The notes under the pieces were generated by a model. The model saw nothing but the letters and a program-made list of their open reading frames with translations. It was not told the origin of the DNA and ran no database searches. Position numbers and translations under genes: made by a program. A stretch of 64,000 nt of DNA from Naegleria gruberi (Eukaryota). The stretch lies in assembly GCA_000004985.1 (NCBI GenBank), contig GG738857.1, one strand, 5' to 3'. This document shows, in pieces, positions 5,874 through 59,163 of this stretch (its first letter is position 1; each line of letters starts with the position of its first letter).

Positions 5874-7522
5874 TTACATGTTTAGATAAGAGTCAGTATA
5901 GCTTGGTTCAATCTTGGCAACCACTTCAGCTAGTGTGCCTGTCATTCTCTTGATGAAACACTTGCTAGGCACTTTTCGAATATTGCAAATAAATTCAAAC
6001 CTGTTAAAGTTGGTATTCCAAATGAGATAGTAAATATTTGTTCTCTTCTTTTTGATAGGTTTGCTATGTTTCTCAATAGACTCGATAAATGATTCAATAC
6101 TCGTTATATTCTCCAATGTCAATTTGGAGGATTGATTGTTTTCATCCTCAAATTCAATGTTATAGTCTTTGATAAACTTATCTTCCAAATAAATAATCAT
6201 GTGGTAACCTCCAACAGCCATGTTGCAAATATTCTTTCTTCAAAAATTGGATGGTAAAATTTGGTTGGTTCTTTCTGGAAGCATTCATCTTTCCACAGTT
6301 GACCACAAATAAAAATTTCATTCTTATCAGTCAGATAAATTGTAGATTCTCTTCCACATCTAACTTCTGTTATCTTATTCTTTGTGAAATTCATGGCATT
6401 GAGAGTTGTTATTGTTTGAACAGTAGTTCCATATGTTTCTGATGGGATACCAAGTTGATTTTTAGTATTATATCCGCATCCATATGTTTGTCCATCTCGA
6501 GTTTTAAAAATTGTGTGAGATTCACCACACTGAATATCTACAATGATTGATTGAATGGATAGTATATCTTGGTACTTTAGCTCTTGAACTTCATCAAAAA
6601 CATCTTCCAAATTTCCTACTCCCAATGCTCCAGAATAATTTCTTCCATAAACGAAAACTCTACCCGATTGAGTCAAAATAATAATGTGGCTATCTCCACA
6701 AGAAACTCTCCTTATTGGATCTGATGATTCTTGTTTAAATATTTCCTTTCTATTTACAGGCATATTGCTTTCTTCAATGTCTCCATTTAATAAAAGAGTA
6801 CCATCCTCTGTTTGGAAGACTGTAAATCTCAACCCAGAGTACACGTGATGAATTATCCCCAAATCTTCTACAAGTGTTGGTGCCAGTACCCAATTATCAG
6901 GAATGCAAAGTTGTGAATAATAATTATTACCAGAGACATAAACTTTTCCATTAACAGTCAAGAATAAAGTATGAAATTGGCTCAAAACAACCTCTACAAT
7001 CTGACTATCAAAAGAAAAATCCATTCTCACTGGTTCATAAACAGTTTTCAAATGATTCACACCTAGTTGACCAAAAAAGTTGTTTCCCGAAACTAGAAAT
7101 AGTTAATACTAGTTAAAATTCAGAAATAACATACCATAAACAAGGTTGTCTATTGTTATCAAAACTGTTTGAGCTACTCCACATTCTATCATTCTAATAT
7201 TTTGATTAGAACAACGAACACCATTACTTTGTAGAATCGGGTGACAGAATGTTTGTGAGCAAACCTCACTAGGCATATTCAACATGTAATCTCTAGGTCT
7301 TTTATGAAGTAGTTGACCATATTGATAATTTCCCATTACCAGAAAAACTGTTCCATCATGTTGTGGATCACTTTCCGTCGATTGACTCCAATTTAAATAA
7401 TTACTCGTTGTTTCAAAAACCATAGTATGAGAATCAAAAGTAGGAGCATAACTATGCTCATATTGTCTATAAAATCCACCACCATTGGAGGTTGATTTTG
7501 CTCCCACATACGTATTTCCCAT
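5874..7522 (-). CDS. RCC1-repeat protein, multi-exon, with an apparent frameshift near 6197-6221
   Basis: RCC1 motifs GNYQYGQL, YVSGNNFFGQLG, VYGRNYSGALGVGN, GCGYNTKNQLG. There is a 42-nt intron at 7093..7134 (GTATGT...TAG, phase-consistent). ORFs 6197..7060 and 5874..6221 overlap in different frames. Confidence 0.6.
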
Positions 7523-10099: not shown

Positions 10100-11224
10100 T
10101 TACTTTGAAATAGACGCTGAAGCAACATATAAAAATTCTAATATTGTCCAACTCAACCCAGAAGCAAAAGCTCTTTTCATAATTCTTGGGCTTACACCTC
10201 TGAATAGAGTTCTGAATCCTTCGTTCTTAGTGATTGTAACCAATGCGTGAATTACTCCATTATATGCTTTTGTATTTGAACTTGGTTCAAGTTGCAATCT
10301 TGTTCTAATCATATCAAATGGATGTGTAATAACTGATGAAAGAACACCTCCAACAGCGCCACTAGGCATTGTAATGAACGGGCTTGTTTCCATCTCCTTC
10401 TCTCTTCCCTTGTAGAATGTATTTGTAAGTGCATATCTTGTTTGATTATAAAACAAAAAGTTCAATCCAGCATTTGGGATATCTCGCACTAAGGTAGCAA
10501 ATAATCCTGAAAAGAATCCTCTTAAACCTTCATTCTTTGCAATATGTGAAAATGTCTCCAAAACTCCTCTATTGTTTTCCATAAATTCTAATCTTGTTTT
10601 AACAACTGTTATCGGACACAAAATTACTCCTGTCAATCCTCTACTAAATGCTGCAATTAAAAAACTCTCTGTTGGTGAAAGTCGACTCTTTGCCAAAGCA
10701 TCAATAGAATGTGTCTTGGCTGTGATTGTCATTTCTTTCAAATAGCTTAACATGTTGTAATAGAGCAATGATCCAGGAGCAACTCTAATAAATGTTGGTA
10801 TGGTTCCTCTATATAATCCTTTAATTCCTTGTTCTTTATAAATATGTCTTGCTGTCGTCATCATTGTTTCTCTTGGATGAACTCTTTCACTCTTTGCAAA
10901 AGCATCAGCTCGTAAAATCATATTTGTCTTGATGACATCCATCGGTTGTGTAAGCAGTGTCGAGAAGGTACCAGCCACTCCTCCCGACACGAATTTCAAT
11001 ACATTCTCTACCATTTTACTTTCATTTTGTAAAATTTCCGAAGCTTTAGCTGCGTCAGGACCGAGACCGAGAGGAAGACTTGTTTGATTTTCTTGCATTT
11101 TTTTTAGGGTTTGAGATGGAGCTCTTGATTTGGCGCCTTTATTTGTCTCTTGATTCTCAAAGCTTTTCGCTCTAATGTTTGTTGCTTGATATTCAATCAA
11201 AATTGAGTTGGAGATTAATTTCAA
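10100..11224 (-). CDS. mitochondrial substrate carrier family (SLC25) protein
   Basis: Three tandem carrier repeats with Px[DE]xx[KR]x[KR] signatures (PMDVIKTNM, PITVVKTRLE, PFDMIRTRLQ). The true start may be the internal Met near 11098. Confidence 0.85.
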   Translation of the reverse strand: MKLISNSILIEYQATNIRAKSFENQETNKGAKSRAPSQTLKKMQENQTSLPLGLGPDAAKASEILQNESKMVENVLKFVSGGVAGTFSTLLTQPMDVIKTNMILRADAFAKSERVHPRETMMTTARHIYKEQGIKGLYRGTIPTFIRVAPGSLLYYNMLSYLKEMTITAKTHSIDALAKSRLSPTESFLIAAFSRGLTGVILCPITVVKTRLEFMENNRGVLETFSHIAKNEGLRGFFSGLFATLVRDIPNAGLNFLFYNQTRYALTNTFYKGREKEMETSPFITMPSGAVGGVLSSVITHPFDMIRTRLQLEPSSNTKAYNGVIHALVTITKNEGFRTLFRGVSPRIMKRAFASGLSWTILEFLYVASASISK

Positions 11225-11691
11225 TTAGAGCTAATTGAAAATTGATTGTAATCTATTAATTGATTCTTAAGGAGCAAATTGATTGTAACTAGTCAAAATT
11301 TTGAATTATTTGAAAAATAGATTTCAAAAGGAAGGCAAAATTGACAAATAACATTGTTTTCACATTTGTCCTCAACAATGCAAAAGGAAATTATAAACAT
11401 TGGATAATTGTCTTCACAAATAGTAATTGTACAAATAATACACGTTACAAAACATTTGGATTGGCCCCTGATCTTTAAAAATAGATTTCAAATTGAACAA
11501 ATTCATTGAAAAAAACATCTCTCAACCACCACCTCCTTGTTGAACAAGACAAAATAAAGCCAGGCTTCGGGAGATTGAGACTTGTATTTCAAAACATTGT
11601 TTATTCAGGAAGGAATCATTAGAATTCGAGCGTACAGCCTTTTTTAAATCAACTCTTTGATTGTGTTTAATAGTTTAGTAATTGGTAATCA

Positions 11692-14379
11692 TTGTTTTTT
11701 CTCAAAGGCTTTGAAATGATCAAATTGAATTACGATCAAGAACTGGATATGTTTATCTGTGGAGGAAGTGGTATTGAGTTTACCTCTCAAATATCTGCTA
11801 ACCAACCTCTAATTAAAACCTCTCTAGTTGAATTGTACTTTCCATCCAAACAATCATCGAGTGGCAAAACAAATACCACTCAAACAACCGATTCCTCGAA
11901 CAAGGATCAATCAACCAACTCTGACGACAAGAAAATCACTCCTCCTATTCAGTATGGTGCCATTCCGAAGTTCTTACAAAAAACCAATCAGAACAACATC
12001 GTCTTTGTCTCAACTCCTTACAGTGAAGGTGTTATATTTCATAACTACAAGGAGATATTTCTGTGTGGCCATGTTTTAAAGGACTCCGTGCAGACTCTTC
12101 ATAAGGTTCCAGTGTTTTCAGAGACTGATAATTCAATTGTGCAAATTGTGACATGTAGACACTCAATGTTTGTCCTGTTATCTAATGGGAAGATGTACAG
12201 TTTGAGAGGAAACGAGATGGTAGTTTATTTAGATCAGGAAAAGAGAGCTCTCGATCCAAAGTGTCTCCTACAAGAAATTCCATTCGATAAACCAATTAAA
12301 TATGTTTCGAATGGTGGTGGGAAACACTTCTTTGCTCAAACAACAGACAATGAGCTCTATGCTATTGGTGACGATACATTTGGACAATTATGCCTTTCTA
12401 AATCCTCCATAAGATCACACAATGGATTTTCCAATAATACCAAAAATGTAGATGAAAGAAAGGAACTTGATGATTATGAATCCACAACTTTCTATCCAAA
12501 ATTTGTAAAAGTCCCAATTGATAAGACAATCTCAATGCAAGATAACGAAATTGAGAAGATTGAATGTGGGTTAAATCATACATTCATTCTAATAAGAAAT
12601 GTACAGACTGGTGCTAAATCTCTCTATTCCTCAGGGTGCTCATACTATGGCCAAACAGCAATTGGTTCAACAAGAAATAGAAACAGACTCTCTCAGGTAG
12701 AATTGAATTGCTCCAATGAAATTATAGATATCAAATGTAATAACAATGGCTCATATGTCATTACACCAAGAGCACTCTTCTATGCCGGTATCAATGATCA
12801 AAATATTCTTTCTGTAAATAAGGCATACAGTTCAGTGTTGACAGAAGTTCCTCTTACTACTCAAATAGCATCAAATGACGAATTCAGTATTATGGAATGT
12901 GGCTACAACCACTGCCTTGCTGTCACTAAGAGGAATAGAATATTTGGCTTTGGAAGATCCTCGTCCAATCAGTTCGGCATTGGTTTAAACAACTATATTT
13001 GCCAAGAGATTGAAACAAAGGAATTGTTTGACAAGAAGATTGTTGCCATTTGTTGTGGTCATTCTCATAGTATTATATTTTCTCAACCTTTGGTAGCTCC
13101 TGTTGAAGATGAAGTGCAGCTCCACGAAGACTTAATCAAGCTAAGATCGAGTAGTAATGTCTGGGATTTACAAATATTTACTGCATCCAAAGACTTTTCA
13201 GTGAAAATTCCTTTGTATATTCTTTCTAAAAGAAGACCAGAACTGCTGAGTTACAACAAGTCAAAGGCACCAAAATCCAAAGATAGTTTATTATATTTGA
13301 TAGATTGGATTTATTTCAATACATTCATTGAACCATCCCTACAGATTGACAGCTTGATTGATGTTCTTGAGTGGATGACTGTAAATAATGTGCAAGATGA
13401 AAGTCTTACTAACCTTGTTCTCAATGAATCAATAATAAGAACTAACGAAGAAAATGTGTATGACACCATCCAATACATATTGAATAGAAAGTATCCTAAG
13501 GAGGAGTCACCATTATCAGCTTTTTGGCACCATGCTCTAAGCTTTTGTAAACAATATATTGTAGAGAATAGCTTCTGTAAAATTAAGAACTCAAGCTTTC
13601 TCAAACAAAGCATTTTAGTTGAAATAGCAAAGCTAGAAGATCCAAATCTATTGGAATGTAGATCACTCAGTGAAGTTCAAGAATCTCTTCCTCAAACTAT
13701 TCCAGAAATTGTTTCAGAAATTTTCGACTCACCACAGCTCTCTGATTTACAAATCGTGCTAGACAAATCTAGAGGATTTGTTGTCTATTGTCACAAATCA
13801 ATTCTTGAAACACGAAGCAATTATTTTAATATGAAAAAGTACGGATTTCAAGCAGCTACAATCAATGAAATTGACGTAAGCTGTCTCTTCACTATATTTA
13901 AGAAAAATGAAGATATTACATTCGAGGATTTCATTAATTTGAAATCATTATTGAAATATCTTTATACTGGAAGAATTGAAATCACAACAAAAAATGCACT
14001 CACACTCATGTTACTTTGGGAAGCTATGGGAATGTCTGAAAAAAGTCCTCTATTTGAAACATGTAAAGACTTTGTTTGTAGAGGGCTCTGTATCGAGAAC
14101 ATTATGAATGTCATTACAAAGGTTGTCAACAGAGAAAAGAAATCTACACCAACTGAGAGTCCTTCAATGATTGGCTTTGGAATTTTCAGAAATCTAATTC
14201 AAGAAGAGGAATCACACTTGCAACCTTATAATTACTCCATCATTGAAACGGAATGCCTAAACTTTTGTGCCAACAAATGGAAGGAAATTCTCTTGATTTA
14301 CAAGCACGACATTTTAAATTTCCTATCAAAGGAACAACTCTTGAAGATTACATGTATCCAAAACAGAGTTTCCTTGTAG
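11692..14379 (+). CDS. RCC1-repeat and BTB/POZ domain protein (RCBTB-like)
   Basis: RCC1 blades (CGLNHTFIL, CGYNHCLAVT, CCGHSHSIIF) followed by a BTB-like segment (LQIVLDKSRGFVVYCHKSILETRSNYF); single 895-aa ORF. Confidence 0.8.
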   Translation: MFFLKGFEMIKLNYDQELDMFICGGSGIEFTSQISANQPLIKTSLVELYFPSKQSSSGKTNTTQTTDSSNKDQSTNSDDKKITPPIQYGAIPKFLQKTNQNNIVFVSTPYSEGVIFHNYKEIFLCGHVLKDSVQTLHKVPVFSETDNSIVQIVTCRHSMFVLLSNGKMYSLRGNEMVVYLDQEKRALDPKCLLQEIPFDKPIKYVSNGGGKHFFAQTTDNELYAIGDDTFGQLCLSKSSIRSHNGFSNNTKNVDERKELDDYESTTFYPKFVKVPIDKTISMQDNEIEKIECGLNHTFILIRNVQTGAKSLYSSGCSYYGQTAIGSTRNRNRLSQVELNCSNEIIDIKCNNNGSYVITPRALFYAGINDQNILSVNKAYSSVLTEVPLTTQIASNDEFSIMECGYNHCLAVTKRNRIFGFGRSSSNQFGIGLNNYICQEIETKELFDKKIVAICCGHSHSIIFSQPLVAPVEDEVQLHEDLIKLRSSSNVWDLQIFTASKDFSVKIPLYILSKRRPELLSYNKSKAPKSKDSLLYLIDWIYFNTFIEPSLQIDSLIDVLEWMTVNNVQDESLTNLVLNESIIRTNEENVYDTIQYILNRKYPKEESPLSAFWHHALSFCKQYIVENSFCKIKNSSFLKQSILVEIAKLEDPNLLECRSLSEVQESLPQTIPEIVSEIFDSPQLSDLQIVLDKSRGFVVYCHKSILETRSNYFNMKKYGFQAATINEIDVSCLFTIFKKNEDITFEDFINLKSLLKYLYTGRIEITTKNALTLMLLWEAMGMSEKSPLFETCKDFVCRGLCIENIMNVITKVVNREKKSTPTESPSMIGFGIFRNLIQEEESHLQPYNYSIIETECLNFCANKWKEILLIYKHDILNFLSKEQLLKITCIQNRVSL

Positions 14380-21342: not shown

Positions 21343-21356
21343 TTTTTGGCGCCAAT
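21343..21356. promoter_or_regulatory. E2F-type site TTTGGCGCCAAT (DHFR-like inverted half-sites)
   Basis: Motif match in a divergent intergenic region. Confidence 0.3.
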
Positions 21357-21697: not shown

Positions 21698-21946
21698 GAA
21701 TAATGATTCATTTCATTCTAGGAATAGACACACATCTAAATTGTACCTCTGATACTATTTTTATATAGTATTATTTTGAATACGACAACATCAAATCACC
21801 AAAATATTCTGCTACACAATGTGCGTGTTGAAGCTGAAAAACAATTCTACAATTTTACCTTTTTTGCGAATCCATCATCCCGCCATTGATGTACACTTTT
21901 TTGGCGCGTGAATGATACAGAATACACCAAGCAGGTAATTAAGGAG

Positions 21947-21996
21947 NNNNNNNNNNNNNNNNNNNNNNNNNNNNNNNNNNNNNNNNNNNNNNNNNN
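21947..21996. other. assembly gap (50 N)
   Basis: N run; frame across it is meaningless. Confidence 1.
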
Positions 21997-24849: not shown

Positions 24850-25298
24850 GTTTTTAAAAAGACAAAAGACTACAGCACCACAGGTTCCCAAGTTGTCTCC
24901 AACCTCAGTACTGATGTGGCTCGACGATGCTTAACTTCTCAAATCGGACGGGATGAGGTGCATTCATCGTGATATGGCCGTAGCCATTAAATTCCTTAAT
25001 ATCTGAATTATAAATATATTATCTATACTAAATTGAACGTTTTCAGACCTCAAGTTGTTAATTCAGTTCTCCAGTCTGGACGTTTGATTGCTGATGCATG
25101 TGAATCATTCGCCGAACATTGTATTGATGGATTCAAGCTAACGAACCAAAGATTAAGGAATATGTCCAAAACTCCTTAATGTTGGTAACTGCCTTGAACA
25201 CAATTATTGGGAATGCAAAGAAGGCCTACCAAGAAAATATCAGCTTGAAGCAAGCTTGTTTGGACCTCAATTTTCTTACCAATTATTCCTTTCATTAA
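24850..25298 (+). pseudogene. class II fumarase (fumarate hydratase / aspartase family) C-terminal fragment, frameshifted and truncated
   Basis: After a TTTTCAG acceptor at 25041-25046 the frame reads ...NVFRPQVVNSVLQSGRLIADACESFAEHCIDG. A 1-nt slip near 25130 then gives [28 protein letters not shown]..., collinear with the FH C-terminus (FELNVFKP...GIQAN...[21 protein letters not shown]). No upstream lyase domain fits, because the previous gene ends at 24701. Confidence 0.55.
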
Positions 25299-25494: not shown

Positions 25495-25568
25495 TACCGA
25501 CAATGGGGCTCGAACCCACGACCCCAGGATTAGAAGTCCTGTGCTCTATCCAACTGAGCTATGACGGC
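25495..25568 (-). tRNA. tRNA-Arg (anticodon UCU)
   Basis: Minus-strand cloverleaf: acceptor GCCGTCA, D arm GCTC-AGTTGGATA-GAGC, anticodon stem CAGGA/TCCTG with loop CTTCTAA, T arm GTGGG-TTCGAGC-CCCAT. There is one U-U mismatch in the acceptor stem. Confidence 0.8.
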
Positions 25569-35886: not shown

Positions 35887-35986
35887 NNNNNNNNNNNNNN
35901 NNNNNNNNNNNNNNNNNNNNNNNNNNNNNNNNNNNNNNNNNNNNNNNNNNNNNNNNNNNNNNNNNNNNNNNNNNNNNNNNNNNNNN
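35887..35986. other. assembly gap (100 N)
   Basis: N run. Confidence 1.
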
Positions 35987-45105: not shown

Positions 45106-46707
45106 TTATTTCAGTAACACCTTGTACTCATCAATCTCTCCTTCACATAATTCCTCTAATTTTTCCTTTCTTTCTTTGTGATCCTCAAATGCACCTTCCA
45201 TATCGTATTCACTGTATAGTCTCTTCTTGATAAATAATTTCAATTCATTTCTGTCATTTTGGGTAGTATTTACATTGTCATTGAGATGTTTCAGCCACAG
45301 GACTTCAAAACATTTTCTGAGTTGAGTATCAGAGAGTTTTGTGAGTGGCTTAGCTCTAGCTTTAAATTCTTCAAATGTTTCTCCTTCCTTTTCGTCTGCC
45401 TTTCTCTTAGCTGCTTTAAATATTGGACCACATACTTCTACATCAACCTTATTTCTCATTAATTGGAATTCATCACCAGGGTTTTCCACAGTAACTTCAT
45501 AGCATTCTCTTGGTTCGTAGGTCTTTTCTTCCACATTTTGAAGAGCATTATATCCAATCAAACTCTTTTGTTCCTTGTAACCCTTGATGGCATATGTATA
45601 AATTGCAAGGAGGAGTTTTCTTCCATGTCCTTGACGTTGGAATGGAGGCAATATTAAAAATTGACTCACTCTCAATCTTCTCTTATCTTTTAATACACCA
45701 TCTTCTTTCTTCAGGGTAAAGAATGGATATATTGATGAGAAACCAACAGGTATATATTCGAAATTATTTTCATGATCCTTAATTTTTTCATATCTGAAAG
45801 AAGAGTCAATTTAAATTATTCATGTTGAAAACTTACACTAAAAAGAATTCCCATAGATTATCTTGATCATCAATATATGAAGTTCCTTCAATAAAGAATA
45901 GACACAAGAATTGCCATGGTTTGTGAAGTGCTGCAATTTGTGACATTGTACATTTGTAAATTTCAAAAACTTTTCCATCTCTATAATAAACATCAATTTG
46001 TTCTCCTTTTGGTGTATTTGGTTGATTTATCTTGGATTTAAATTCAGATAAATTTTCAGTATATGGGAAGTAGAGAGGGACTGCACTAAATTCCGAGAAT
46101 TGAAATTCCAACTCCTTTGCAGCAAAGATTGATTTAACATCTGTTGCGTCATCACTTTATAAAATCAGTTAAGTTATCCACTTTCCAATAAAACCTACCT
46201 CTTAGTGTCATACTGAACGTTAAACCAACAGTATAATGATTTAGTAAAATAGAAATTAATTCGGAGGTTCTCATAACCATCTAATACATTGTTATTATCA
46301 TATAACAATCAAAACATACCAATTTTTTCCTCTTCTCCAAATAATTGATAGGTGAATTGTGGATGGAATTCCATCAATTTATGATGATGTTCTACATCAT
46401 TTGTATCAATGTATTGTTGTTCAATATCGGATTCGTTTCTGACAAGACGGAAGCGAATAACATCGTTGGCACTACACGTTAATTCATCATCACGGCTTAC
46501 ATCTGATGCTTCATCTTGTTCTTCAAAATCTTCAAGATCATCTTCATGGGATTCAGCACCCTCCATCTCAACCATCTTGTTTAACTTGTTAAACTTTTTG
46601 GTTTCTTGTGAAGTATTGTGAATACTGCTTCCGCTATCGGTGAGTTGTTCTTCGTTGGTTGCTGTGCCAGAAATTGAGAGCTTCTTCTTCTTTGCAAATG
46701 GTTCCAT
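45106..46707 (-). CDS. hat1: histone acetyltransferase type B catalytic subunit HAT1, 4 exons
   Basis: FTYQLFGEEEKI, YENLRINFYFTKSLYCWFNVQY, FLCLFFIEGTSYIDDQDNLWEFFLV and RVSQFLILPPFQRQGHG are collinear with human/yeast HAT1. Exons approx 46707..46320, 46280..46199, 46154..45837, 45795..45106 (GTATGT, GTAGGT, GTAAGT donors; phases consistent). ATG is at 46707, and the ORF-track start at 46728 is a TTG. Confidence 0.85.
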
Positions 46708-46730
46708 TTTTTTTTGGTTTTTCAACAATA

Positions 46731-46762
46731 TTTGGCGCTAAACGATTTCATTTGGCGGGAAG
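46731..46762. promoter_or_regulatory. tandem E2F-type sites (TTTGGCGC at 46732-46739 and TTTGGCGGGAA at 46751-46761) 25-55 bp upstream of the HAT1 ATG
   Basis: Exact matches to the metazoan E2F consensus TTTSSCGC / TTTGGCGGGAA in otherwise AT-rich DNA. Confidence 0.5.
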
Positions 46763-46854
46763 AAATTCCTAAAATTTGTGTAATAATCCATTTCAACAAA
46801 ATTAAACTGAATTTGTTAGCTAATTGATTCAATAAATAATGAAATCTTTTATCT

Positions 46855-47570
46855 TTATCTTCTGAATCTTAAATTTGGCATGACAGCTGGCTTTAAATGT
46901 TGATAATGTTGAGAGCTAGTTCTTCCTTCTCTAATTCTTCTCATATGATCATTAGATCTTACTGGACTGCGTCTTGGAAATCTAATTGGTTCTCTACCAC
47001 CAATAGTAATTGGTTCAAGCACTCCACCAATTGGTTGAACAGATGGACTCCTTTTTATAGGATACTTTGGTTGGACCAAATTCTTTCTAATTTTCTTCAT
47101 AAAAGCGTCTGATCTCTTTGGTGACATGAATCCTCTTTGGCCAGCTCTTGGACTATTCTTTCTATTATATTCTTCTCTAATTCTCTTCATGAAGGAATCA
47201 GATCTCTTTGGGGACATGAATCCACGTCCTCTCTTAATAACTTTTGGATATCTTTCTCCAATTTCTCTTCCTGACCACTTTTTGGAATCGTTTGGCTTTT
47301 TGGTCAAAATATTTAGAATTTGATTTCTTCTTTTAATCTATGTTGAATATATTTCAGAATAAATTGTTATACTGTGAGATGAATAGTCCAAATTGATGAT
47401 CAACTTACCATTCCATTTCTTTCTCTCAATTGACTAACAATCTTTCCATCAAGGAAGAAGCCAAGACTTTCCCATCCTTGTTTTTCAAAACTGTCATCAG
47501 TTTGTTGTGCAAGAACGACAACATTCAACAAGGCGAAAAGGACAACCACAACTGCCACAGCAATCTTCAT
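46855..47570 (-). CDS. secreted basic repeat protein (candidate peptide precursor), 2 exons
   Basis: Exon 1 47570..47409 encodes signal peptide MKIAVAVVVVLFALLNVVVLAQQ..., GTAAGT donor, 71-nt intron, exon 2 47337..46855. Internal repeats are GRGFMSPKRSDSFMKRIRE / QRGFMSPKRSDAFMKKIRK / PRRSPVRSNDHMRRIRE. The protein is very basic and ends ...NLRFRR. Confidence 0.55.
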
Positions 47571-48662
47571 CTTGTTAATTTTTTTGCAATGGTGGTTACA
47601 ACCTTGCCATATCAAGATTGCTTCCTTCATTTCAACCTAATTGGAGTATTCGATTATAATGACTGTTCTTTGAGTGAAGAAATGGATATGATCTTTACAA
47701 TTTACAATTGCAAATAAATGGGTGATTTGGATGGACAAATTGTTTGGAAAAATGTCTTGCCCATCTGCTCATAGATTCAGTTTCAGTTTTTGTCAAGTGA
47801 ATTTAAGGGAGTGCCTTAGTGAACATCACCTGATACGTTCGCCTAACCTTCCCAATTCAATAGTGGAAGCATAAACTCTCTTCAATGGTTATTATCATTA
47901 TGCTCTTTTTTTGAAAACCCAATTATTTCAAAATGAAACAGTTCATCACTCTGATAAATGAAAACAAGGCGTTCGTTCTGTTGATTCAAGATGTTTTATT
48001 CAACACCAGATTCGTTTCTTAGAAGTGAATAGCATTGTTTGGAAGAAGCCAAAACCATCATCTGAAAAATTACAAATGAATCCCTAATCTCTATTCAAAA
48101 TCTCCATCTAGATTATTGTATCCATCACGTTTACAATTCACTACGGAAGCTCAAATCTTATTAATAACAACATCACCAAGAACCGAACAAATCTTTTATC
48201 TGACCGTTCCTTAACAATTTACAGTTCTTTTTTTTAGTATTTTGGGTTTGTCTCGCCATTTATTACAGCTGCTAAAACCTCAACTTCCGCAAGAAGCTAG
48301 GCCTTTGATTGGTCTCACCAAAGCAAAAATGCCCTTAAAAAAAAAGACACCCATTTCTTGTTACTTGGCTGCCCTTTTGCGCGTTTTTTTTGCAACTCAT
48401 CACCCTCTTGAGCCAGTGACTTTGTATTAATATATATTGGCGGAGAAGAATATAGCAATAATAATTTGATTCGGACTTTGTGTTCTTGTGTGATAGTAGT
48501 AGTATTTGTATTTTTTGATTGTAGTAGAATAGTCTCTCATTATCATTTTGACAAGTTTAAAGTGGACGTTATTTCATCATCAGCATCAGCATCAATAGAA
48601 AAGGTTTCGAACCTGTATAACTGTCATCTTGAATAATTATTTAATTACTGTATAATATAGAA

Positions 48663-50011
48663 ATGTTTTATGCCGCCGGAGCTAATGAACATGGTAGGTT
48701 ATTAGTAATAATTAAATAGTAAATTGATGGAATATCAAATTAATTTATAGGTCAATTGGGGAATGGTACTTACTCGAACGTTATGGATCTCTCTCCCATC
48801 AACATATCAGCTCATCACTATAGACAAAAAACCTATCGTCAGCTAGGTCCCAAATGTCTTGCTGATTTTGCATCACTCGATGAACGTTCATTGATTGGTC
48901 TTTGTAAAATTAAACAAATTGCTTGTGGTAAACGTCATACCATGATACTAACTGGTAAGTTATTGTATCACAGCATGTTCAAGCTAATTAAACTATTTAA
49001 ATAGAGGAAAATGATTTGTATGCTTGCGGAGATAATTCCAACTCTCAACTTGGAGTCTATGAAACAATATCCAATAATACTGTTGAATGGATAGATTTTG
49101 AACCCGCTAGGACGTCAAGAATTACCTCAATTGCTTGCAGCTCTAATTCTTCCTTTATATTTTTGGAAAATGGTGAAATGTACAAAACAAGTCCTAACAA
49201 AATCTCTAATTTATCCCACAAAAATTCATTTTTCAAACTTACCATCGATAGCAAGAGCCAAGTGAAGAATTTCTTTAGCTCACCAACAACGAGTAGATTC
49301 CACATACTAACCAATGATAATTCTGTATTTGTAGGAGGGGAAGATGAGCAAGGTTTTTGGTTGTCAAGACAAGACCAAGCTCTGAAACCGACATCATTCC
49401 CTATCATCACCAACCCAATTAAAATAATTTCAAGTGGAGGTTTCCATACAGTCATTATTACCGAGAAGAATGAATATTTCAGTTTGGGAGGAAATTATTT
49501 CTATCAACGAGGTGACACAGATGATAGAGCTGCCATTAGAGAAGGTACTAATTTACCATTCTCTGGAAAGGCTATTAGTCAAGTTTGTTGTGGACATTTC
49601 CACACACTAGTGTTGTGTGCAGATGGAAGCTTGTATGCTTGTGGTAAAAACAGTCATGGACAACTTGGAAGCCCAACCCTCAATGAAAAGAATCTCTACA
49701 TGAAAGTACCAATTAATGCCTATATACACTCAATGCTTTGTGGAACAGACCATACCGTATTATTATCAACTGATAAGAGAGTTATGAGATGTGGAAAAAA
49801 TGACAGAGGGCAAATCTTTATAGATTTCAAAAAGCAAAACTCATCATTTGAAATGCTGAAAGTCAAGGAGTTTGCCCATTTGGCTTGTGGTGCTCATTTT
49901 ACAATATGTTATGGAGACATGACCTATGTTATTAATCGTTTCCCAAAGATTGCTTCATTTCTGAAGAGAACAGAACTATCTGATGTGAGGATTAAGTGTT
50001 ATGACGATTAA
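48663..50011 (+). CDS. RCC1-repeat protein, 3 exons
   Basis: Exon 1 48663..48693 (MFYAAGANEHG), exon 2 48751..48954, exon 3 49005..50011. Motifs GQLGNG, YACGDNSNSQLG, YACGKNSHGQLG, MRCGKNDRGQIF. Confidence 0.7.
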
Positions 50012-52256: not shown

Positions 52257-53743
52257 TTGAATGTTGTGAGAGTGAATCTACAAAATATATTAAAAAGTGA
52301 GAAGAAGAATCAGTGTTGGCTTCTTTTTTTCAAAATTGTGTTGGAAATGTGATGGATGCTTTTTGTATAACACAATGATATTCTCTTATCCACACTATTA
52401 AAAATACTACTACTACTATCAAATATATTCAAAAAACAACTCTAAAAGGCTAACTCCTTCGCTACTAGAAATATTATTGTTATCGGTTGGAGAGTTTGTT
52501 TTTTTGGCGCGAATTTTTCAAAGCGAAAAACCAACAGGTTTGTGTTCTTTTTTTCAGAGTTGAAAAGCGGTAACTTGTTCCAGCTGGAAAGGAGAGCTTG
52601 CACCTTCTTTGTTAGAAAAAGTAACATGAAAGTGTTGAATGAATGGGAATTATGAGAGACTATGAAAATGCATGGAGATGATTGGTTGACAATTTGGCAG
52701 TGATGTTGATTTTCGTGAACTCACGTCGTAGTGTTGATTCTGTCTGTGGTAACCAAGTTGAGAAGGTGGTTGGACAAATAGCCAGTTAAGAGAAAGAGTT
52801 ACCATTTCAATTATTATGGCAAAAAACATTGTTGTTTTTAACAAGATGTAAAAACTGTATCTGTAATGGAGTGAAAACATTGTATGCAAGGAAAATAGTG
52901 TTGTAGTCATTGAATTACTGTTGTAATAACATGTTGAAAGCCATGTTTTAATTTGCAATTGCTTACAGTCACTGTCGATTGGGAAGTCATTTTAGATGTA
53001 AAAATGCACAAGGTAGCTTACAATGTGGAAAATAAAAAGGTTAAAGAGAATAATTGCATGAACCCGTTGGATTTCCAAATGTGGTGTTTGTTACAGGTTC
53101 ATAACCACTATACATATTTGGATGATTTAAAAAACAATAAGGAAGGAATTCAATATTTGAGGAACGATATACTGTTTGATGTGGTTTACTGTAAACAGTT
53201 CGATATCGATTGCATGAGTCCAATTTATTGTATTGTTTCAATTTCTCATTCTTTCTAATAACCAGCAAAGCCAACCGATGAAAACGCCATGTTCAACCAA
53301 CTCGAATTTCACATCAAAAGTTTTTAGTAATCCCCCTCATCAAGACAAACAAGTCAACTCTTTTTTTCATATTTGAATATGAGTGCTCACGCCTCCATTG
53401 CCTCGTGCTTAATGGACCAACAGGAAGACACATCAGCTAAGGGCATCCTCAATTGTGAAAGAATTTTGCCTGTACGGATAAATATGGATGAATTTCTATT
53501 GAGCATAAGTCTCCAATTGGAGTGTATCCAAACAGAGATGATGCACGTACAGGAAGAGGCACAACAGATTCAAGCTTGGTCAAGGGCGAGTTGTGTGTGT
53601 GATTTGATGATGCCTCGAATCGAGAGCTCTTACATCAGCAACAGCTACTACTCTTGAGGATATAGGCAGCATCCTTTATATAGAGACCATCAAGAAAAAA
53701 ACAACAACAATCTCATACTCATTTACCTTAGATCTTGTTAAGA

Positions 53744-59150: not shown

Positions 59151-59163
59151 TTTGGCGCGCAAA
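59151..59163. promoter_or_regulatory. near-palindromic E2F-type site TTTGGCGCGCAAA in the divergent promoter between the 7TM-RGS gene and the DUF4116 gene
   Basis: Motif match only. Confidence 0.35.

Follow-up and report, generated by a model that had tools for sequence, protein, structure and literature searches.

The locus considered here raises the question of whether two short motifs, placed immediately before a putative histone acetyltransferase gene of Naegleria gruberi, are sites of the E2F family, and whether they could tie the transcription of this gene to the RB/E2F cell cycle. The window, i.e., the whole stretch of 64,000 nucleotides that was analyzed, has a G+C content of ~34%. 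The gene to the left of the motifs was rebuilt as a four-exon gene on the minus strand with a spliced product of 491 aa, and its upstream neighbour on the same strand is NAEGRDRAFT_65262. The features that define this part of the window are as follows:

46320..46707, minus strand: HAT1 exon 1 of the spliced model (GT..AG introns), with the ATG at 46707-46705
46199..46280, minus strand: HAT1 exon 2 of the spliced model
45837..46154, minus strand: HAT1 exon 3 of the spliced model
45106..45793, minus strand: HAT1 exon 4, with the GNAT core QRQGHGRKLL and the stop codon at 45108-45106
46855..47337, minus strand: last exon of NAEGRDRAFT_65262, with the stop at 46855-46857 and 99% identity to XP_002679598.1 of N. 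gruberi

The 491-aa product matched Pfam Hat1_N over the full profile (1.8e-32) and Acetyltransf_1 weakly, and its QRQGHGRKLL stretch corresponds to the acetyl-CoA motif of GNAT enzymes (Q/RxxGxG). A homologue search returned the proteins of N. fowleri and Willaertia magna as the nearest relatives, and the best hit was N. fowleri at 70%. In a four-way alignment the product was 71% identical to N. fowleri HAT1 over its full length and 60% identical to W. magna HAT1. On the basis of domain content and orthology, the predicted gene is HAT1, the type-B histone acetyltransferase. An earlier note, made from the letters of this stretch, had given the adjoining gene the same name, which the Hat1_N match (1.8e-32) and the ~71% identity to the N. 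fowleri protein bear out. A DAGK-like gene lies convergent with HAT1 on its downstream side and is syntenic in N. fowleri and W. magna. N. gruberi itself was not represented in the list of HAT1 homologues, though the same database includes N. gruberi proteins, and HAT1 therefore seems to be absent from the published N. gruberi gene set.

The same note had placed the DNA in an amoebozoan, and this was mistaken. N. gruberi belongs to Heterolobosea, within Discoba, and a dictyostelid or other amoebozoan origin was ruled out, as the nearest HAT1 relatives come from Naegleria and Willaertia and the neighbouring gene is the N. gruberi gene NAEGRDRAFT_65262. This neighbour (46855-47630, minus strand) encodes 214 aa in which a signal peptide precedes basic repeats, GFMSPKRSD[SA]FMK[RK]IR, flanked by K/R pairs, and its predicted product looks like a secreted multi-peptide precursor. 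It had no Pfam match, and a search of 1.8 billion representative proteins gave a single weak relative.

The HAT1 ATG and the NAEGRDRAFT_65262 stop are separated by a gap of 147 bp only, and both E2F-like sites sit in the HAT1-proximal third of it. A scan of the gap for promoters and terminators of bacterial type was set aside as not meaningful in eukaryotic DNA. The two sites are:

46731..46738, minus strand: proximal E2F-like site, TTTGGCGC on the plus strand and GCGCCAAA in HAT1 orientation, at -24..-31 from the ATG
46751..46761, minus strand: distal E2F-like site, TTTGGCGGGAA on the plus strand and TTCCCGCCAAA in HAT1 orientation, at -44..-54 from the ATG

The distal site may also be written TTTGGCGG(GAA), and the plus strand around both sites reads ...caatATTTGGCGCtaaacgatttcATTTGGCGGGAAgaaatt... 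The two are direct repeats of ATTTGGCG, 20 bp apart, and GGCGGGAA occurs once only in the window, at the distal site. These are the two E2F motifs that had been reported within 46729-46765 and no more than 55 bp from the start codon, and both the motifs and the distance held when the sequence was re-read. Since they lie 24-54 bp before the ATG, it is possible that they fall within a short 5' UTR. Such a placement would be a weak argument against them, because E2F sites at, or slightly downstream of, transcription starts function in animals. Both TTTGGCGC and TTTGGCGGGAA match TTTSSCGC/GCGSSAAA, the E2F consensus quoted in PMC4862756, with its SGCGS core. According to the same paper, this core is E2F-specific and E2F, unlike the fungal factor SBF, requires a G before the central CG of its consensus GCGSSAAA; the GGCGC and GGCGG cores found in the window fit this requirement.

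An E2F-like site is conserved at orthologous HAT1 promoters. Within 9.6 kb of N. fowleri DNA, searched on both strands, the sole TTSSCGC match was TTCCCGC, 86 bp before the HAT1 ATG, so that this promoter has one site instead of two, and a 7-of-8 match only. All TTSSCGC matches in 9.5 kb of W. magna lie upstream of HAT1, namely TTTCCCGCC at -120 and the palindrome TTGGCGCCAA at -81. TTCCCGCC, in the same orientation as the distal site, is kept before HAT1 in both species (at -86 in N. fowleri and at -120 in W. magna), and TTGGCGCCAA at -81 in W. magna is the counterpart of the proximal site. In a further protist, the HAT1 of which is 35% identical in the four-way alignment, the sole TTSSCGC match of a 3.1-kb contig was TTGGCGC at -98 from the probable HAT1 ATG, within the 143-bp gap that follows the preceding gene. 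The gene upstream of HAT1 is different in each case: N. gruberi has a secreted-peptide gene there, N. fowleri has Glyco_transf_15, and W. magna has a SET-domain gene. This indicates that the sites travel with HAT1. A metagenome scan with the HAT1 alignment yielded 39 loci with uncertain start codons, most of them uninterpretable; a clear case was L030, with TTGGCGCC at -34 as the sole site in 5.5 kb. The HAT1 promoter of the oomycete Aphanomyces gave a weak result, with a near-match, TTAGCGCGCGGAA, at the ATG only.

The same motif was found before the gene for the retinoblastoma-type pocket protein (RB). The RB loci were retrieved by a homologue search whose query combined RB, E2F, and cyclin A; its RB part was the N. 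gruberi sequence that Medina et al. 2016 give in their supplement, and this part produced all matches, the E2F and cyclin A parts none. W. magna, a Naegleria species, and Acrasis kona each carry a pair of E2F-like sites 15-95 bp before RB. The W. magna pair is TTGGCGCC at -46 and TTTGGCGCCAAA at -32, in a promoter that reads ggaTTGGCGCCttttatTTTGGCGCCAAAtactcaattaaattaaaaaaATG. The Naegleria species, which comes from a metagenome and has a 71% identical RB, carries TTCCCGCC at -42 and CCCGCCAAAA at -24 (aacTTCCCGCCttttttgctcCCCGCCAAAAaattagcaaaaaaaATG), with the ATG set by N-terminal alignment with N. fowleri RB. In Acrasis kona, where the start of the conserved N-terminal exon was taken as the ATG, the pair is CCGCCAAAA at -95 and TTTGGCGCG at -76 (tgtCCGCCAAAAgaacctcgttTTTGGCGCGgtttc). 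In each RB locus, these sites were the sole or nearly sole matches across 8-18 kb. In animals and plants, pocket-protein genes are self-regulated via E2F sites, and RB itself is an E2F target there.

When the six loci from outside the window were pooled, the 150-bp stretches that precede the HAT1 and RB start codons made up 1.45% of the sequence and contained 8 of the 11 TTSSCGC sites (binomial P ~3e-13). The start codons of three comparison loci (L003, L009, and L011) were reassigned by N-terminal protein homology. Likewise, a site was present in all six HAT1/RB promoters versus one of 25 neighbouring promoters of the same loci (Fisher 1e-5), a comparison that covers two gene families, HAT1 and RB. 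The single positive neighbour shares the intergenic region of N. fowleri HAT1. The low frequency among neighbours suggests that the motif is not a generic promoter element in these related species.

Two further features of the RB loci were observed. RB is divergently paired with a kinesin gene (Kinesin and Microtub_bd domains, kinesin-14-like) in W. magna (L008 7474-10001) and in the Naegleria species (L009 135-694), and because of this arrangement the paired E2F sites may serve a bidirectional promoter of two cell-cycle genes. In addition, the RB models of N. gruberi, the metagenomic Naegleria species, and Acrasis kona seem to be N-terminally truncated (L009 616-1250; L011 5183-6000; P0065). 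The N. gruberi and Acrasis kona models have 733 and 643 aa, respectively, versus 859 aa in N. fowleri and 862 aa in W. magna. In L009 and L011, the DNA contains conserved upstream RB exons, and for N. gruberi the truncation was inferred from protein length only.

The proteins that would bind such sites are represented in N. gruberi. NgruE2F, NgruDP, NgruDEL (E2F7/8-like), and NgruRB are listed, one each, in the supplements of PMC4862756 (Medina et al. 2016), and the NgruDEL sequence given there has two DNA-binding domains. The DNA-binding domain of NgruE2F aligned with human E2F4 (1cf7_A) at 7e-25, with an identical stretch of 22 residues, and NgruDP aligned with human DP2 (1cf7_B) at 1e-28, with IRRRVYDALNVLMA identical. 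The structural matches also included E2F8. A search of the protein database recovered N. gruberi RB with 100% identity. As seen in the 1CF7 structure, proteins of the E2F/DP family contact DNA through their RRXYD motif. As judged from these predicted proteins, N. gruberi encodes an E2F and a DP with the RRXYD DNA-contact motif, together with a pocket protein. Since the recognition segments of NgruE2F and NgruDP are identical to the human ones, canonical E2F specificity is expected.

Next to the HAT1 pair, the window holds further copies of the octamer. TTTSSCGC was seen six times versus 1.05 expected, a count that none of 100 shuffles reached, which agrees with the earlier claim of over-representation in this window; TTTGGCGS was seen eight times versus 0.79 expected. 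In an unbiased 8-mer scan, TTTGGCGC ranked first in non-ORF DNA (6 seen versus 0.16 expected, p 2e-8) under an ORF mask that was refined after the sites had been seen, by trimming ORFs to the first ATG and dropping two doubtful ones. Among the 8-mers of the whole window it ranked fifth, behind triplet-repeat words, and was the top non-repeat 8-mer. All six octamer copies lie outside ORFs. Their flanks are unrelated (25-41% identity), which rules out an origin from a repeat element. In the list of recurrences given previously, 52503 and 59151 were exact, 21343 and 21895 should read 21345 and 21900, and a copy at 11129 had been missed. The sites away from HAT1 are:

11129..11136, minus strand: TTTGGCGC, reading GCGCCAAA in the orientation of a mitochondrial-carrier gene, ~30 bp before its ATG (~11099)
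21345..21355, no strand assigned: near-palindromic site TTTGGCGCCAA, with the palindromic core TTGGCGCCAA at 21346-21355
21878..21908, plus strand: site pair TCCCGCC (21878-21884) and TTTGGCGCG (21900-21908), 22 bp apart
52503..52514, no strand assigned: TTTGGCGCGAAT, ~250 bp before an RGS/PAS membrane-protein gene (minus strand)
59151..59163, no strand assigned: TTTGGCGCGCAAA, ~250 bp before a multi-pass membrane-protein gene (minus strand) and ~490 bp before a DUF4116 gene (plus strand)

The site at 21345..21355 lies between the ORF of a Q-rich membrane protein (minus strand, ATG ~21086) and a 93-aa ORF (plus strand, ATG 21416), ~70 bp before the latter. A TALE homeobox gene (Homeobox_KN 2.6e-17) directly follows the pair at 21878..21908, with a putative ATG at 21912 that is made uncertain by the assembly gap downstream of it at 21947-21996. 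The membrane-protein gene near 59151 had no Pfam match, and calling it RGS-like rests on its C-terminal sequence only. These surroundings lend no support to an S-phase regulon: the flanked genes are those of a mitochondrial carrier, a TALE homeobox protein, a 93-aa ORF, and RGS-type or RGS-like membrane proteins, and besides HAT1 no replication-linked gene was recognized in the window. Either the five other octamers belong to a regulon that is wider than S phase, as is the case for the animal one, or some of them have no function. No RNA genes were found near the sites, the sole RNA genes detected (5S rRNA and tRNA-Arg) being far from every one of them.

The six TTTGGCGC octamers (11129, 21345, 21900, 46731, 52503, and 59151) are all on the plus strand, regardless of the orientation of the nearest gene. 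This bias is weakly unusual, with odds of about 1 in 32. Three of the six extend into near-palindromes.

Taken together, we estimate a probability of roughly 0.8 that the two motifs are E2F-family sites through which HAT1 transcription is coupled to the RB/E2F cycle. The likely occupant of the sites would be an E2F-DP heterodimer that recruits the RB pocket protein, and the atypical E2F7/8-like DEL is a possible further occupant. From the very short promoter, the sites would act on HAT1, the product of which would acetylate new histone H4. If the system works as it does in animals, plants, and Dictyostelium, HAT1 would be kept silent by RB-bound E2F when the cell is not replicating its DNA, and would be turned on by free E2F along with other replication-coupled genes. 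For Naegleria, binding of E2F at the HAT1 sites, the point at which transcription begins, and periodic HAT1 expression over the cell cycle are inferences. In other organisms, HAT1 appears on lists of RB-pathway targets. The genes repressed by RblA in Dictyostelium include HAT1, HAT2/RbAp48, ASF1, and CAF-1 (PMC3386910), and human HAT1 is tabulated under "Genes controlled by p53-p21-RB signaling" (PMC9090780). The reading of the earlier note, an RB/E2F cell-cycle regulon conserved in an amoebozoan, thus survives in part. The HAT1 sites are very probably genuine E2F-family sites, as they are conserved before HAT1 in three species, pairs occur before RB in three heterolobosean genera, the motif is near-absent from neighbouring promoters, and the factors are encoded; what falls away is the amoebozoan host and the weight of the other octamers of the window as supporting evidence.

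Three other explanations were weighed against this one. The motifs might be bound by some other DNA-binding protein, or form a general GC-core promoter element of heteroloboseans, with no link to E2F/RB or to the cell cycle. The octamers near the mitochondrial-carrier, TALE homeobox, and RGS-type or RGS-like genes would fit this idea, as would the presence of a site within 150 bp of ~4 of ~40 gene starts in the window (counted by eye). However, a general element is hard to reconcile with a motif found in just one of 25 neighbouring promoters of related species. As for some other protein, the collection of GGCGC, GGCGG, and CCCGC forms and of the palindromes TTGGCGCCAA and TTTGGCGCCAAA reproduces the S-S degeneracy and half-palindromic character of E2F sites, the recognition segments of E2F and DP are identical to human, and RB is an E2F target in animals and plants. 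HAT1, in turn, is on lists of RB-pathway targets elsewhere (PMC3386910, PMC9090780). We consider this explanation unlikely. Chance occurrence in AT-rich intergenic DNA, or membership of the 3' end of the upstream gene, is the least credible of the three. The motifs are short, and the 147-bp gap must also accommodate the 3' UTR and polyadenylation signals of NAEGRDRAFT_65262. On the other hand, only ~1 octamer is expected per 64 kb and no shuffle in 100 reached six, the sites are conserved at orthologous HAT1 promoters despite different upstream neighbours, and the binomial P over independent loci is 3e-13. The shuffles, the conservation, and the pooled statistics have effectively refuted it already.

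The third explanation accepts genuine E2F-family sites and differs in the occupant: they would be held mainly by the DEL repressor instead of E2F-DP/RB, and HAT1 would be damped with no G1/S burst. In the literature on PDB 4YO2, E2F7/8 reportedly prefer longer sites of the TTCCCGCCAAAA type. The distal site TTCCCGCCAAA (in gene orientation) and the CCCGCCAAAA site before RB in the Naegleria species resemble this preference, N. gruberi has a DEL protein with two domains, and E2F8 appeared among the structural matches. The proximal site and most others, however, are plain TTTGGCGC, and the proximal site lacks the CCCGCC form. Furthermore, the targets of typical and atypical E2Fs overlap in both animals and plants, so that occupancy by DEL would refine the main explanation without replacing it. 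As a full alternative it appears very improbable.

The reading as E2F-family sites under RB/E2F control can also be set beside known systems. The G1/S E2F sites of animals and plants (TTTSSCGC) and those of Naegleria are alike in core, S-S degeneracy, pairing, and frequent palindromic extension (TTTGGCGCCAAA), and the heterolobosean sites are also alike in lying within ~100 bp of the gene start. The motif marks HAT1 and a pocket-protein gene in both, and the DNA-recognition segments of the factors are identical. The adenovirus E2, human E2F1, RBL1 (p107), and DHFR promoters carry E2F sites in pairs, and plant replication genes carry TTTCCCGCC. Naegleria differs in lineage (Heterolobosea, Discoba) and in extreme compactness, with 147 bp from stop to ATG, and its sites are known here from sequence. 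The RblA regulon of Dictyostelium discoideum (PMC3386910), the one that the earlier note had in view, has HAT1 in common with the Naegleria case, whose host is not an amoebozoan. The Dictyostelium genes were identified by their expression in an rblA mutant, and neither the word "motif" nor TTTSSCGC occurs in the main text of the paper. The fungal SBF/MBF sites (SCB CGCGAAA and MCB ACGCGT) have the same role as G1/S elements, and their consensus overlaps that of E2F (PMC4862756). SBF, however, was not found outside fungi, and the Naegleria sites carry a G before CG (GGCG), which is reported for E2F only and not for SBF-type sites (PMC4862756). No description of E2F cis-elements in Naegleria, Willaertia, or Acrasis was found in the searchable literature, and the Acrasis genome paper makes no mention of E2F or RB.

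Protein surveys have led to the inference of an RB-E2F network in the last common ancestor of eukaryotes (LECA). To our knowledge, evidence from DNA target sites comes almost wholly from animals, plants, and few others. A single octamer that marks HAT1 and RB in Naegleria, Willaertia, and Acrasis would provide support at the cis level from Discoba, far from animals and plants. It would also be among the first legible promoter elements for Naegleria, whose transcriptional control is almost unexplored. The heterolobosean case thus extends a known switch to a distant branch, which is useful and testable, and also expected: such a motif is unsurprising because the Naegleria factors and their human counterparts have identical DNA-binding segments.

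More tentatively, and with clearly lower confidence than we place in the HAT1 sites themselves, the whole RB/E2F cis-module (paired sites, RB self-regulation, and HAT1 as a core target) could date to LECA and have been kept nearly unchanged in Heterolobosea, with an extension to non-replication genes in N. gruberi. The ancestral paired sites may often have been ~20 bp apart and immediately before the start codon, and the additional N. gruberi targets may be the TALE homeobox gene (pair 21878-21908), the mitochondrial carrier, and the RGS-type or RGS-like genes. If true, this rewiring would couple exit from the cell cycle to amoeba-to-flagellate or other differentiation programmes.

Other features of the window were recorded along the way. 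The 5S rRNA gene (24867-24985, 105 bits) and the tRNA-Arg(TCT) gene (25495-25568) are both on the minus strand, ~500 bp apart, amid protein-coding genes. Runs of N at 21947-21996 (50 bases) and 35887-35986 (100 bases) are assembly gaps. The latter appears to lie between a DOCK-C2 ORF and a RasGEF ORF, which may belong to one gene or to two. Finally, RCC1-like repeats occur in at least three genes of the window (6200-7102, 11689-14376, the latter with a BTB domain, and 49001-50008), which suggests a locally expanded family.
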